From assembly GCA_965197585.1 (NCBI GenBank), contig OZ240215.1, forward strand, positions 480,001-544,000: 64,000 nucleotides of DNA, written 5' to 3'. The DNA is from Dehalococcoidia bacterium. Lineage in GTDB: Bacteria > Chloroflexota > Dehalococcoidia > Plut-88900. The notes beneath the pieces are model-generated. The model was given only the letters and a program-made list of their open reading frames with translations, had not been told where the DNA came from and made no database searches. This document shows positions 52,246 to 58,653 of this stretch, piece by piece. Numbering within the stretch: position 1 is the first letter of the stretch; every line of letters starts with the position of its first letter. Both the position numbers and the translations under genes were made by a program.

Positions 52246-53835
52246 ATGCCAGAGATGCCCAAAATCACTGCCTCTGAAGAGCTTGCATCCCTGCTGGATC
52301 AAGGCGCTCCCATCGCCCTGTTGGACGTGCGTGAGCACGGAGAATACAACCTCGCCCACATCCCAGGCGCCTGCCCACTTCCACGACGGCTCATTGAGTA
52401 CCGGCTCCCTCGCCTTGTACCCAATAGGGCGACCAGGATTGTAGTCTGCGATGACGATGGCAGGAGAGCAGCGTTGGCCCTTGGCACGGTGGAACGTATG
52501 AGATATGCGAATGGGTCGGTGTTGGAGGGTGGGATCAACCGCTGGACATCCCTCGGTTACGGGTCCGAGTGGGGTGTCAACGTTCTGAGCAAAGATTTCG
52601 GAGAACGGTTGCAGGTTGAACAGCAGGTTCCGGAAATAACCGCCGAGGAGCTGGAAGGCTGGATATCCCGCGGCGAGCAGTTTGTCATGGTCGACTCCCG
52701 GACGCCGGAGGAGCATCATAATTTCTGTATTCCGGGCAGCCGCAGCCTTCCCGGTGGGGAGCTCGCTTTGCGCGTCTGGGACATGATGGATACCGAGGAT
52801 ACCCCGGTTGTAGTGCATTGTGCAGGCCGTACCCGGAGCATCGTTGGTACGGGCCTTTTGCAGCGTATGGGCGTGAAGCAAATCTACGGGCTGCGGAACG
52901 GAACGATGGGGTGGCAACTGGCGGGGTTCGACTTGGAGAAAGGGTCGGGCCGGGTGACCTTGAATGCGCCATCGGATGAGGCTTTGGGAAGGGCTGAGGC
53001 ATTCGGTCGAAGAGTGGCGGCTGAGGACGGAGTGAACTACTTGACGCCCGACGGACTGCAGAGATTGTTGTCGGAACGGCGTGACGAGAACGTCTATCTC
53101 GTGGATGTGAGAACGCGCGAAGAATTCGACGCAGGCCATATTCCGGGATTCTGGTGGCATCCGGGAGGGCAGGCCGTCCAAGAGAGCGACAACGTGGTTG
53201 GGGTGAAGGCAGGGCAGATAGTCTTTTGCTGTGACGGGATAGCTAGGGCTTCGGTGACAGGCTCCTTCTTCAGGCAGATGGGATACCCGAACGTTCACGT
53301 GGTGGAGGGCGGCACGAAGGCATGGAAGGAAGCGGGACTGGGGCTTGAGTCGGGCTCCCGCGATGCTGGACCCGCCACCTTGGAAGAGGCTCGCCGTCGT
53401 GTCTCTTCACTATCTCCGGGCGAGGTGGACAGGTTGATGGAAGGGTACGCCATAGCGCTGTTCATCGGGACGAGTGCGGAGTTCTCGCAAGGACACCCGC
53501 CGGGCAGCCGATGGGCGCCTCGGGGCTCCCTGGAGCTCCTAGTGGATGGCATGGTGCCCTCCAAGTCGACACCCGTGGTCCTTGTGAGCCCCGAGGGTCG
53601 TGAATCGATACTCGCTGGACTGGCGTTAGTGGATATGGGGTATGAAAGCGTGGCGTCGTTGGATGGAGGTACGCGGGCTTGGGTTGCGGAGGGGCATCCG
53701 TTGGAAAGAGGTCTGTCAGGAGTGATGACACCCCCGGATGATTTGGTGGCTACTGGCTCTGGGCGCAACTTCGCGGGGGCTATAGAGTATTTGAGGTGGG
53801 AGGAAGAGCTGGGGAGGAAGTACGAGCGCGACTAG
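52246..53835 (+). CDS. Multi-domain rhodanese/sulfurtransferase
   Basis: Four rhodanese repeats (DVRE..EY..AHIPGA; VVHCAGRTRS; GHIPG; LDGGTRAW). Confidence 0.9.
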   Translation: MPEMPKITASEELASLLDQGAPIALLDVREHGEYNLAHIPGACPLPRRLIEYRLPRLVPNRATRIVVCDDDGRRAALALGTVERMRYANGSVLEGGINRWTSLGYGSEWGVNVLSKDFGERLQVEQQVPEITAEELEGWISRGEQFVMVDSRTPEEHHNFCIPGSRSLPGGELALRVWDMMDTEDTPVVVHCAGRTRSIVGTGLLQRMGVKQIYGLRNGTMGWQLAGFDLEKGSGRVTLNAPSDEALGRAEAFGRRVAAEDGVNYLTPDGLQRLLSERRDENVYLVDVRTREEFDAGHIPGFWWHPGGQAVQESDNVVGVKAGQIVFCCDGIARASVTGSFFRQMGYPNVHVVEGGTKAWKEAGLGLESGSRDAGPATLEEARRRVSSLSPGEVDRLMEGYAIALFIGTSAEFSQGHPPGSRWAPRGSLELLVDGMVPSKSTPVVLVSPEGRESILAGLALVDMGYESVASLDGGTRAWVAEGHPLERGLSGVMTPPDDLVATGSGRNFAGAIEYLRWEEELGRKYERD

Positions 53836-55394: not shown

Positions 55395-56591
55395 TTGGCA
55401 CAGTCAAACCCGACCTACCCCATGTTCTCCCGACAGGAGATGGACCGCCGACTCGCCCGAGCCCGCTCGCTCATGGCACAAAACGACTTGGACGCACTGC
55501 TGATCACGGGTGAACACAACTTCCACTATTTCGTGGGCGCTGCCCCAAGCATCGGCCCCAACGAGTCCCTGGCCCGACCCTCGGCTTTCATTTTGCCCGC
55601 TGTAGGCGATCCGATAATCGTTTCCCAAGGCCGGGACAACATCGAGCAAGGCACCTACATCACCGACATCCGGGACTATTTCGACGTGTTGCAGTTCCCA
55701 TACGAGCTGGTTGGAGAGGCTTTGCGGGACAGAGGATTGAGCGCCGGGCGGATAGGGGCGGAACTTGGGCAGGAACAGAGAATGGGAGTGCCGGTCGGGG
55801 ACTACCTCAGCATCGTCGGCTCGATGCCCGAGGCCCGGTTTGTTGACGCCGCAGACGTCATCATCAAGACTCGCATGGTCAAGTCGGATGAGGAAGTGTC
55901 ATACATGCGTGAGGCGGCTCGCATTACTGCCAGGGCCCGACATCGTCTGTACACGGACTACTTGACTCCCGGAGTAACCGAGCGCCAGTTGGCGCGCCAG
56001 TTCCAAAAGCTGGTCCTTGAGGAGGGCGCAGACGGCACGTCCTTCGTCCACTTCCAATTTGATATACAGTCGGAGTTGCCGGGGGCTAAGCACGCATTTC
56101 ACTATGACAGGCCTCTGAGACCGGGCGTCATACTGGGCATCGACACCGGGGCCCGGGTCGGGATGTACACCGTCGACTACCCACGTATGGTCTCCCTAGG
56201 CCCGTCCACTGACAGGCAGAGGCGGCTCTACAATCAACTCCTCGAAGTGAACCGCCGTATGGTAGAGGCGCTGAGACCTGGCGTCGAGGCGGCGGACATT
56301 CACAGGGCCGGTGTGCAGGCGATGAAAGACCTGGGAGTAGAGACGGACAACCCTGAAAGGCTCACGGGTGGCAGCCGCATGGGTCACGGGCAAGGGATAC
56401 AGTTCACGGAGCCCCCCAGTGTGACGCCCACCGACCATACGGTACTTGAAGTAGGTTCTGTTATAAGCACGGAGCCGGGAATCGGGGACGATGAGTTGCA
56501 CCTGCTGTGGGAGGACACCCACGTGGTCACAGAGACCGGCTCAGACCTTATCACGACTGAGTCGGACGAGTTACGGGAGGTCGCGTTCTAG
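55395..56591 (+). CDS. M24 (Xaa-Pro/creatinase-like) peptidase family
   Basis: AAGGAG + TTG start; RMVKSDEE, IDTG...VDYPR, GHGQG, TEPG, WEDT. Confidence 0.88.
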   Translation: MAQSNPTYPMFSRQEMDRRLARARSLMAQNDLDALLITGEHNFHYFVGAAPSIGPNESLARPSAFILPAVGDPIIVSQGRDNIEQGTYITDIRDYFDVLQFPYELVGEALRDRGLSAGRIGAELGQEQRMGVPVGDYLSIVGSMPEARFVDAADVIIKTRMVKSDEEVSYMREAARITARARHRLYTDYLTPGVTERQLARQFQKLVLEEGADGTSFVHFQFDIQSELPGAKHAFHYDRPLRPGVILGIDTGARVGMYTVDYPRMVSLGPSTDRQRRLYNQLLEVNRRMVEALRPGVEAADIHRAGVQAMKDLGVETDNPERLTGGSRMGHGQGIQFTEPPSVTPTDHTVLEVGSVISTEPGIGDDELHLLWEDTHVVTETGSDLITTESDELREVAF

Positions 56592-56645
56592 CTGTACAGG
56601 CACGCCCTTACCATTTTTAGCGCCTTAGATAACACCTGTCCACGT

Positions 56646-56674
56646 TTGACATCACTCCTAAACAACGCTAAGCT
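56646..56674 (+). promoter_or_regulatory. Sigma70-type promoter of the sulfite reductase operon
   Basis: TTGACA (56646-51), 17 nt, TAAGCT (56669-74). Confidence 0.8.
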
Positions 56675-56683
56675 TCAGCACTA

Positions 56684-56734
56684 ATGAATAACGGATATTG
56701 GCTTGATAACTGCGTCTGTATGTGCCGGAAATAG
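56684..56734 (+). CDS. Cys-rich leader peptide MNNGYWLDNCVCMCRK (attenuator uORF)
   Basis: ATG about 10 nt after the -10 box with no SD (near-leaderless); codons TGC-GTC-TGT-ATG-TGC; TAG at 56732, followed by attenuator hairpins. Confidence 0.7.
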   Translation: MNNGYWLDNCVCMCRK

Positions 56735-56766
56735 GGTCGGCGCTAATCCGGCTTGGCACAGCGTTG

Positions 56767-56804
56767 CGCCCCTACGATGAAGTCTAATCGAAGGGGCGTT
56801 TTTT
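56767..56804 (+). terminator. Attenuator terminator
   Basis: CGCCCCT-A-CGAT-gaagtcta-ATCG-A-AGGGGCG followed by TTTTTT, upstream of the reductase RBS. Confidence 0.8.
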
Positions 56805-56838
56805 ATTGCAATAGAGAAATAGGGGAGATCAGGGCTAA

Positions 56839-58653
56839 ATGACTACCGTTGAAAGAGACCCTTCCATAAAGGATAAAGCCGGTCTTGACTACTCAAAGGG
56901 GATAATTCCCTACCTGCCCCAGGAAGTCTCCGACTTCGAGACCGAGGTAACAAGCTTCCAAAAGGGCGGTTGGGAAGACCCCCTGAAATTCACTGCCTAT
57001 AGGCTCGTCCGAGGCATATACGGTCAGCGCCAACCTGATCTCCACATGATCCGCATCAAGATGCCTGCCGGCAGCCTTACCGCAGACCAACTCGATGCCG
57101 TAGGCGAAGTCGTTGATAAGTACGTTCCCCTCAACAAGGGCCACGTCACCACCCGGGAGAACATCCAGCTTCACTTCGTAAATTTGGAAGATACCCCTGA
57201 TGTCTTGCGGATACTCGGGGAGGCGGGTCTCTCTACCCGTGAGGCCTGCGGCAACACCGTGCGAAACGTCATCGGCTGCCCCCTCTCCGGCGTCACCCCC
57301 GACGAGCCCTTCTACGTAGGCCCCTATCTGGCGGCCTTCGCCCGGTGGTTCGTACGGCATCCCCAGGCCCAGGCGCTCCCCCGAAAGTTCAAAGTAGCCT
57401 TCGCTTCTTGCAATGACGACTGTGTCGTCACCGCTATCCATGACCTCGCCTTCAAGCCCAGGGTCCGGGTCGACGAGAATGGCGTCGAGCGCCGTGGCTT
57501 TGAAATGATCACCGGCGGCGGCACCTCCATCATGCCCCGACTCGCCTACACCCTCTACGACTTCGTCCCTGTCGAGGACTTCCTCCGGGTCAGCGAGGCC
57601 GTAGTCCGCATCTTTAACCGCACGGACGAACTCCGACGTAACCGAATGAAGGCCCGGATCAAGTTCTACATCGACCGGGTAGGCATCGACGTTTTCCGTG
57701 AGCTGGTCGAAGAAGAGTTGAAGCAGCCCTGGGCCCAGGAGCCCTACGATCCCGAGCCTCTCATGGAACTCCCTCCCGAGCTCATTGACGAGCCCCCCGC
57801 CCTTGTGCCTGTAGAGAGCAATGGGCAGCGGTCTCCTGCCTTCGACCGGTGGGTCTCGAGCAACGTACACCGGCAGAAACAGGACGGCTACAACGTCGTC
57901 ACTGTCAAGCTTCCTCTCGGCGATATCTCCACCGAGCAGTTCCCCATTCTCAGCCGCATCGCCCGCGACTTTGCCGGTGGCCGCATCCGGACCACCGTGG
58001 AGCAGAACGTGGTTTACCGGTGGGTCCCCACAGGCGTGTTGAAAGAAGTCTGGCGTCAGCTTAAGGACGCAGGCCTCGGGGAAGCAGGAGCCGGAGAGAT
58101 CACGGATGTCGTCTCCTGCCCCGGCACGGACAGCTGCAAGCTCGGCATAACATCTTCAATGGGTCTGGGTCAGGCCGTCGGCGATGCCCTTAGGGAGGCG
58201 GCCTATGAGGACCCGCTAGTCAGGTCCCTCCACGTGAAGATCAGTGGCTGCCCCAATGGTTGCGCCCGGCATCACATCGCAAACATCGGATTCCACGGAG
58301 CAGCTACCCGCGGAGCCAACAAGAGCCAGATACCCTCCTACGAACTTTTCATCGGCGGCAGCTTCGGCAGCGATGAAGATGCCCGATTTGGCAAGAGAGT
58401 CAAGACAAAGGTACCTGCCAAGAAGGTCCCCAGCCTCGTGAAGGATATTGTCCACTTCTACCAGAACGAGCGCGAGCCCCAGGAGGTTTTCAACCGCTTC
58501 GTCGACCGCGTCGGCACCCAGCCCTTTGAAACCCTCGCCGGCGCCTACAAAGAGACGGGCCCCTTGAACAAGGAGAACCTCAACACCTACATGGACTGGG
58601 GAAAAACCCGCATGTTCAAGGTCGAGCGCGGCGAGGGAGAGTGCGCGGTATAA
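56839..58653 (+). CDS. Siroheme/[4Fe-4S] nitrite/sulfite reductase (ferredoxin-type, likely assimilatory sulfite reductase)
   Basis: GIYGQRQ, TTRENIQLH, CGNTVRN, LPRKFK, CPGTDSCKLG, SGCPNGC. Confidence 0.92.
   Translation: MTTVERDPSIKDKAGLDYSKGIIPYLPQEVSDFETEVTSFQKGGWEDPLKFTAYRLVRGIYGQRQPDLHMIRIKMPAGSLTADQLDAVGEVVDKYVPLNKGHVTTRENIQLHFVNLEDTPDVLRILGEAGLSTREACGNTVRNVIGCPLSGVTPDEPFYVGPYLAAFARWFVRHPQAQALPRKFKVAFASCNDDCVVTAIHDLAFKPRVRVDENGVERRGFEMITGGGTSIMPRLAYTLYDFVPVEDFLRVSEAVVRIFNRTDELRRNRMKARIKFYIDRVGIDVFRELVEEELKQPWAQEPYDPEPLMELPPELIDEPPALVPVESNGQRSPAFDRWVSSNVHRQKQDGYNVVTVKLPLGDISTEQFPILSRIARDFAGGRIRTTVEQNVVYRWVPTGVLKEVWRQLKDAGLGEAGAGEITDVVSCPGTDSCKLGITSSMGLGQAVGDALREAAYEDPLVRSLHVKISGCPNGCARHHIANIGFHGAATRGANKSQIPSYELFIGGSFGSDEDARFGKRVKTKVPAKKVPSLVKDIVHFYQNEREPQEVFNRFVDRVGTQPFETLAGAYKETGPLNKENLNTYMDWGKTRMFKVERGEGECAV

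Follow-up and report, generated by a model that had tools for sequence, protein, structure and literature searches.

The sulfite reductase gene of an uncultured member of the Dehalococcoidia is preceded by a leader that contains a short upstream open reading frame (uORF), competing hairpins and a transcription stop signal (positions 56646-56838 of a 64,000-nt stretch of contig OZ240215.1, hereafter the window). We propose, with a probability that we put at about 0.8, that this leader senses how much Cys-tRNA(Cys) is available and acts as a ribosome-mediated leader-peptide attenuator of transcription. A first-pass annotation of the sequence had suggested such a device, in which an antiterminator is freed by a ribosome stalled at Cys codons and masked by one that has reached the stop codon, and the suggestion is now backed by comparative evidence, covariation and folds in which the ribosome footprint was masked. 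The leader is a real and conserved element, so far unannotated, with a probable regulatory role.

The uORF is nearly leaderless, with its ATG 9 nt past a -10-like hexamer and without a Shine-Dalgarno sequence. The promoter-like hexamers, the uORF (MNNGYWLDNCVCMCRK) and the terminator had all been listed by the first-pass annotation, and reading the sequence placed each of them at the same positions (Table 1). The terminator consists of a strong GC stem followed at once by six T, and its hairpin has a folding energy of -21.0 kcal/mol (z = -4.6) that was equalled by none of 200 shuffled sequences. A simple consensus scan for promoters and terminators flagged neither the leader promoter nor the terminator, and nothing on the + strand. 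The -10-like hexamer shares 3 of its 6 bases with TATAAT, and the stem of the terminator is interrupted by a mismatch and has a loop of 8 nt in the upper part. A permissive Rfam search (E up to 10) of positions 56300-57000 identified no family, only two chance matches to snoRNAs, and the T-box model (RF00230) had no match in the leader in the Rfam search at that threshold.

Table 1. Features of the leader, the genes downstream of it and the T-box leaders used for comparison. Positions refer to the window unless a genome or locus is named. P1, AT and T denote the predicted anti-antiterminator, antiterminator and terminator helices.
Feature	Position	Strand	Basis or remark
-35-like hexamer TTGACA	56646..56651	+	read in sequence; TTGAC invariant in 11/11 orthologous leaders
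-10-like hexamer TAAGCT	56669..56674	+	17-nt spacer after TTGACA
Leader uORF, 16 codons + TAG (MNNGYWLDNCVCMCRK, stop)	56684..56734	+	ATG at 56684, TAG at 56732-34
Putative regulatory Cys codons 10, 12, 14	TGC 56711-13, TGT 56717-19, TGC 56723-25	+	sequence and conservation
P1 (1:2, anti-antiterminator, possible pause hairpin)	56724-56728 : 56737-56741	+	stop codon in loop; RNAalifold consensus
Antiterminator AT (2:3)	56734-56744 : 56760-56766 + 56768-56771, C56767 bulged	+	masked folds, covariation
Intrinsic terminator T (3:4)	56766..56807; stem 56766-56799, U-tract TTTTTTATT	+	fold, compensatory changes
Reductase Shine-Dalgarno GGGGAG and ATG	56822-56827, ATG 56839	+	read in sequence
Ferredoxin-type siroheme sulfite reductase (NirA/SirA-like), 604 aa	56839..58653	+	Pfam NIR_SIR + NIR_SIR_ferr
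orf122, 122 aa	58661-59029	+	tblastn: directly downstream of reductase in 11/11 loci
orf114, ~105-114 aa	59052-59396	+	tblastn: downstream of reductase in 10/11 loci
T-box leader of reductase ortholog	L085 3420-3671, genome G042	-	118.7 bits (gathering score 93), own terminator
T-box, acetolactate-synthase-like gene	window's genome, C1 3348567-3348792		specifier CUC
T-box, anthranilate synthase gene	window's genome, C1 2688806-2689152		specifier UGG
T-box	window's genome, C1 2836383-2836649		specifier AUC

The order to which the window belongs comprises 12 species genomes, of which 11 (the window's own included) carry the reductase and one does not. The leader was found directly upstream of the orthologous reductase in all 11. 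The Cys-rich uORF and terminator for which the first-pass annotation had proposed a search upstream of orthologous reductases are present in 10 of 10 gene-bearing relatives. A covariance model built from these 11 leaders detected exactly one full-length copy per genome (E = 3e-14 to 2e-31), no copy in the genome of the order that lacks the reductase and no second copy in the window's own genome. The gene on the upstream side varies between species and the leader remains attached to the reductase. When the DNA pattern of the Cys and stop-codon region was searched among 185,579 species genomes, 9 loci were obtained, all within the same order, and 25 matches to a similar pattern in metagenome contigs included none that was leader-like beyond the 31-nt pattern itself. 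A script for Cys-rich small open reading frames (sORFs) followed by a terminator likewise found no second instance in the window's own genome, the other candidates having neither a promoter nor a suitable context.

Comparison of the 11 uORF sequences of the order points to a frame that is read by ribosomes. Every uORF has 16 codons without insertions or deletions, which the adjoining loops and spacer do carry; the ATG and TAG are invariant, and the ATG always lies 9-10 nt downstream of a -10-like hexamer that reads TAAGCT, TAAGAT or TAAACT. No stop codon interrupts the frame in any of the sequences, compared with 14 and 13 stops in the two alternative frames. The Cys codons are conserved at 32 of 33 positions with synonymous changes between TGC and TGT; a single leader has just two Cys codons, and the CxCxC spacing is kept in 10 of 11. 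Elsewhere the peptide is freer: pairwise identity is 50% over codons 2-9 and 80% over codons 10-17, and codons 15-16 swap amino acid (R to W; K, Q, L or P) in step with RNA pairing. Codon 8 is acidic in 10 of 11 sequences. The additional sensing of Met that had been considered at first is not supported, as codon 13 specifies Met in just 3 of the 11 sequences, the others having Ile or Thr there. Because length, start and stop are fixed and the Cys codons are kept synonymously while the N-terminal half drifts, the frame appears to be valued for its codons and not for its peptide, which points to a uORF that is translated and selected for its length and Cys codons.

The consensus structure computed by RNAalifold for the 11 leaders consists of two helices, P1 and T, which together have 94.3% of alignment cells paired and 5 pairs in which both sides have changed, a result reached by none of 500 shuffled alignments. 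P1, which holds the uORF stop codon in its loop and had been missed by the first-pass annotation, shows compensatory C-G to U-A exchanges at two pairs, one in 4 sequences and the other in 2, and the T stem is also conserved with compensatory changes. The formation of a third helix, AT, excludes P1 as well as T. AT has 91.7% of cells paired, versus 35-59% when the partner strand is slid by 1-3 columns, and its covariation score was matched by 2 of 500 shuffles. Two alignment columns, 59 and 60 (G56739 and G56740 in the window), covary in P1 as well as in AT, and column 92 (C56770) covaries in AT as well as in T; three columns that covary in two helices at once are what is expected for mutually exclusive pairings. 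The free energies of the hairpins across the 11 leaders (-6.9 to -14.9 kcal/mol for P1, -10.2 to -20.7 kcal/mol for AT, and -20.5 to -24.5 kcal/mol for T in 10 of 11, with one outlier of -9.5 kcal/mol whose stem extends further) form a ladder of stability, P1 < AT < T, in the classical order.

The antiterminator drawn in the first-pass annotation, in which GGCGC pairs with GCGCC and UAGG with CCUA, differs in register from the conserved one. It can be drawn at -10.9 kcal/mol, compared with -13.5 kcal/mol for the conserved register, and has 84.8% of cells paired with an A.C mismatch in 4 of the 11 sequences; its GGCGC:GCGCC part is nonetheless the best fold of the window's own sequence with a ribosome stalled at Cys14. 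Similarly, the third pairing proposed at that stage does occur, as GCCGGA:UCCGGC, when the complete leader is folded to its minimum energy, but it is poorly conserved (72.7% and 59.7% of cells paired).

To relate these helices to the position of the ribosome, we masked everything up to 12 nt past the first base of the A-site codon and folded the RNA that is present before the 3' arm of the terminator is made. A ribosome whose A site is on Cys12 hides the 5' arm of P1, and all 11 leaders then have AT as their minimum-energy fold. When the A site is moved to Cys14, a helix of the AT type still forms and occupies the 5' arm of the terminator. When it holds the stop codon, the mask extends to 56744, the exact end of the AT 5' arm, and AT is lost.

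From these comparisons and folds we infer where transcription starts, that the uORF is translated, that P1 serves in pausing, and that read-through changes and responds to cysteine, all of which would fit together as follows. Transcription would begin at the uORF ATG or a few bases before it, and the ribosome would load without a Shine-Dalgarno sequence. When charged tRNA(Cys) is ample, the ribosome would reach the UAG, where its footprint to ~56744 would hide the 5' arm of AT, and after its release P1 would sequester the same arm. With the arm hidden in either way, the terminator stem and U-tract would form and transcription would end ahead of the reductase. When Cys-tRNA is scarce, the ribosome would stall when its A site is at Cys12 or Cys14, cover the 5' arm of P1 and leave 56734/6-56744 free to pair with 56760-56771 as the latter emerges. 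This pairing would take the base of the terminator 5' arm, and the polymerase would then go on to transcribe the reductase gene and the two ORFs that accompany it.

Several observations weigh against this reading or limit what can be drawn from it. A stall at Cys10 leaves P1 uncovered and gives folds that vary between species, and by these folds Cys10 may contribute little. AT overlaps the 5' arm of the terminator by just 5 nt, the minimum-energy structure of the window's own sequence has the AT core beside the terminator (-28.8 kcal/mol), and a barrier of just ~2 kcal/mol lies on the direct path that leads from AT to the terminator; AT is thus a weak antiterminator in the energy model, and the efficiency of anti-termination is not predictable from it. 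In the trp attenuator of E. coli, antiterminator and terminator share an overlap of about this length. The -10 hexamer, with 3 of 6 matches, is weak, and its distance of 9 nt from the ATG exceeds the usual one for a truly leaderless start, and long ORFs were opened genome-wide by 12 of 52 ATG or GTG codons at offsets of 6-10 from -10-like hexamers versus 14 of 64 at other offsets, which is no enrichment. The 11 sequences amount to about five independent lineages, and the covariation counts are correspondingly small. In four metatranscriptome runs, contigs of related strains (90-99% alike) span the upstream gene, the leader and the reductase, but such RNA contigs are uninformative here, since they cannot show ends, strand or level and may reflect carry-over of DNA. 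Finally, as possible sources of the sulfite, no genes for sulfate activation or for reduction of adenosine 5'-phosphosulfate (APS) or 3'-phosphoadenosine 5'-phosphosulfate (PAPS) were recognised in the window's own genome.

One alternative is that the uORF does sense Cys-tRNA but that the output lies in Rho, mRNA stability or downstream translation, the hairpin and U-tract being a constitutive partial terminator or a stabiliser. The barrier of ~2 kcal/mol and the ability of the AT core to coexist with the terminator would suit this explanation, as would the poor U-tracts that follow the hairpin in family f59, one of the more distant families discussed below (for example CUGUUAUG and UUCCGUUAG), and those Cys sORFs that have been studied by experiment exert their effect at the level of translation (preprint 10.1101/834739). 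We nevertheless consider it improbable. In a fold of 56681-56870, the reductase Shine-Dalgarno sequence pairs locally with the start region alone and not with the Cys tract or any other segment of the leader, the window's GC-rich terminator stem is strong with its six T directly behind it, and covariation shared by AT and T at column 92 is sensible only under competition between the two.

It is very unlikely that we are dealing with a structured RNA to which a protein or small ligand binds, and with an open frame that arose by accident. P1, AT and T are indeed conserved helices and codons 15-16 follow the RNA pairing, yet the leader belongs to no Rfam family, and an incidental frame would not be expected to show an invariant start, stop, frame and length, 0 in-frame against 13-14 out-of-frame stops, Cys codons that are kept synonymously and a 5' half that drifts without insertions or deletions. 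The leaders of other families, moreover, retain just the Cys run and the geometry. Those leaders also bear on the idea that the 16-residue CxCxC peptide is itself the product, as a metal- or sulfide-binding or regulatory micropeptide, with a terminator that merely separates it from the reductase. The CxCxC spacing and the acidic codon 8, each in 10 of 11 sequences, fit such a peptide, but its remainder is unconserved (50% nucleotide identity), one member has two Cys, and between families the Cys pattern shifts (CxCCC, CCC) while the geometry of the RNA switch stays constant, and we give this explanation very little credence. A chance arrangement, with a terminator that serves the upstream M24 peptidase ORF, whose stop lies ~175 nt before it, and a small ORF that is noise, is next to negligible as an explanation, given that the leader stays with the reductase while the upstream neighbour varies, that the covariance model matches once per genome and that promoter-like hexamers sit between the upstream gene and the terminator.

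We sampled 301 Dehalococcoidia genomes, of which 141 contain an ortholog of the reductase at E <= 1e-100 (a tally that includes the unpublished genome G243), and inspected the regions upstream of 59 orthologs: 11 from the window's own order, 9 from a first sample, 19 that scored next best and 20 from families not yet seen, with one or two from each. A uniform script that screened for a Cys-rich sORF, a hairpin and a T-rich tract flagged 16 of the 59, namely the 11 of the order, three from family f59, one from family f70 and one doubtful case (L120); three more (L089, L103 and L119) were added by eye or with looser settings. The leader peptides of f59 and f70 are quite different (MNIAVTMCACCCRP, MNQIPRRLACACCCWT, MDAPIMVTCSCCCWT, MQIRVLNQNYFCCCQTKT and MNRFDSTFCFCTCPPT), and across these two families the Cys patterns are CxCCC, CCC and CxCxC. 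The Cys run is the sole feature common to the peptides. What f59 and f70 retain is the near-leaderless start, the Cys run and a stop codon within a hairpin, followed by G-rich sequence, with a terminator 63-72 nt past the stop codon. The distance from the -10 hexamer to the ATG is 9-10 nt in family f1 and 6-10 nt in the other families, again without a Shine-Dalgarno sequence. When the same masks were applied to five of these leaders (L086-L089 and L117), AT was present at the Cys stalls and gone at the stop codon in 5 of 5. The covariance model of the order scored L087 at E = 1.6e-7, L117 at E = 6.6e-3 and the other three at E = 0.1-0.2. Alignment of the f59 and f70 leaders with those of the order by MAFFT misaligned the stop-codon region, and folds of single sequences were used in place of a pooled covariation count.

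In family f34, the orthologs L094 and L097-L102 share a different leader, in which TTGACA-17-TAGACT is followed by a structured region of ~150 nt without a Cys uORF. No Rfam match was obtained for the one member searched (L094), and this leader may be another regulatory RNA.

The closest ortholog outside the order, a reductase 69% identical to that of the window (genome G042), has a T-box in place of the leader peptide, and the specifier of this T-box is UGC (Cys). The position of the specifier was calibrated on other T-boxes, which read CUC before acetolactate synthase (ilvB), UGG before anthranilate synthase (trpE) and AUC in a third case. The window's own genome has three T-boxes, none with a Cys specifier (Table 1). 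Judged from these sequences, the same reductase gene is placed under control of tRNA(Cys) charging through two unrelated devices: like the proposed attenuator, the T-box senses the charging of tRNA(Cys), ends in a terminator and controls an orthologous reductase, but unlike it, a T-box binds uncharged tRNA directly and without translation.

Two further T-boxes with a UGC specifier, L127 (G011, 1501-1750) and L130 (G042, 1501-1752), precede a TSUP/TauE-like membrane protein of 257-261 aa, which by this arrangement may be a Cys-regulated permease for a sulfur compound. Genome G011 has both a Cys T-box and a Cys leader peptide. In the window's own genome, the TSUP homologue is just 33% identical.

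The substrate of the reductase cannot be read from overall similarity. The protein scores under every NCBIfam equivalog cut-off, with NirA-family models scoring best, and its best solved relatives are tobacco nitrite reductase and M. tuberculosis NirA, which does not settle the question. In the active-site stretches, the window's enzyme reads REACGN and PRKFK, M. tuberculosis NirA (1zj8) reads TEACGD and PRKYK, and tobacco nitrite reductase reads SGMDN and PRKWN. We take 1zj8 to be a proven sulfite reductase and presume that the second Lys of the anion-binding K-x-K pair separates sulfite from nitrite enzymes. Because the EACG and PRK-x-K motifs are shared with NirA, the gene has a Cys leader and an ortholog has a Cys T-box, sulfite appears the better call over nitrite, in agreement with the preference expressed in the first-pass annotation.

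The two ORFs that follow the reductase probably share its operon. Neither has a Pfam or NCBIfam family, and a search of protein Atlas features with orf122 gave no usable match. The window's genome is a single contig of 3.43 Mb with an estimated completeness of 92%. Within it we found no match to PAPS_reduct (CysH/CysD) above the Pfam cut-off, no match at all to ATP sulfurylase and no match to Xsc above cut-off, and its one cysK-like gene (256 bits, below the equivalog cut-off) has no such leader.

A 529-aa protein made of four rhodanese domains is encoded 3 kb upstream of the leader (window positions 52246-53835). Rhodaneses can release sulfite from thiosulfate, and this protein is a possible candidate for the source of sulfite. 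Tentatively, and with the odds somewhat against it, we suggest that the Cys leader and the UGC T-box replaced each other before the same reductase in neighbouring lineages of Dehalococcoidia, and that sulfite reduction is the sole cysteine-controlled entry of sulfur in the window's lineage, which would imply a life on sulfite from organosulfonates or thiosulfate and not on sulfate.

The classical attenuators of amino-acid operons are those of E. coli and Salmonella, trpL, hisL, leuL and thrL. The leader described here resembles them in its short ORF rich in cognate codons ahead of a gene of the cognate pathway, in the mutually exclusive 1:2, 2:3 and 3:4 helices that lead to an intrinsic terminator, in the predicted masking of region 2 by a ribosome at the stop codon and in the same energy ladder. 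It differs from them in the amino acid (cysteine) and the phylum (Chloroflexota, here Dehalococcoidia), in a uORF that has no Shine-Dalgarno sequence and lies near the predicted start site, in Cys codons that are interleaved (CxCxC) and not tandem, and in an AT that overlaps the terminator by 5 nt. The classical systems are outlined in the introduction of a study of mycobacterial polycysteine leaderless sORFs (Canestrari et al., preprint 10.1101/834739), which reports that in M. smegmatis these sORFs act on translation by unmasking a Shine-Dalgarno sequence, and states that uORF-mediated cysteine attenuation, there of the translational kind, had been undescribed before. Cys-rich leader peptides without terminators have also been predicted in Actinobacteria (Seliverstov et al. 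2005, PMC1262725). The mycobacterial sORFs and the present leader have in common a leaderless or near-leaderless ORF, Cys codons near its end, a location upstream of genes for cysteine or sulfur assimilation and ribosome stalling, which here is predicted. In the mycobacterial cases, however, the downstream Shine-Dalgarno sequence is paired with the Cys tract and an intrinsic terminator is lacking, whereas a strong terminator is present here.

Another parallel is the uORFC-8-2 motif upstream of cysS in Rhodobacterales, for which Brewer et al. 2021 (PMC8632094) give a predicted Cys-Cys uORF and an intrinsic terminator. Like our leader, it is predicted to attenuate transcription by way of the ribosome, and conserved Cys codons and an intrinsic terminator are common to the two, but that motif is alphaproteobacterial, controls the gene of a tRNA synthetase and has its Cys codons as a tandem pair (14-15) within the first stem. 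The Rfam search revealed no sequence relation of our leader to uORFC-8-2 or any other family. A search of article full texts found no cysteine leader-peptide attenuator of a sulfite reductase, and a search for leaderless genes or attenuation in Dehalococcoidia gave nothing relevant among the matches listed.

The attenuation logic proposed here is classical, which limits the weight of the finding. Cysteine is nevertheless the amino acid for which attenuation of the textbook kind is least documented, and the cysS prediction in Rhodobacterales is the sole terminator-based Cys uORF that we found in print (PMC8632094). The present leader offers a covariation-supported example of the terminator type on a biosynthetic gene, in an uncultured group whose regulation is essentially unknown. 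It also adds a putative, unannotated gene and regulatory element and a sulfite call for an ambiguous enzyme of the NirA family, and it provides a natural case in which orthologous genes appear to be served to the same end by a T-box in one lineage and by a leader peptide in another.

Elsewhere in the window's own genome, an element of more than 200 nt is repeated in at least four copies (C1 600909, 1452151, 1870308 and 2466428, + strand). Each copy opens with a strong promoter-like site, TTGAC-18-TATATT, which is followed 9 nt later by a tiny ORF encoding MANH(S/T)P.

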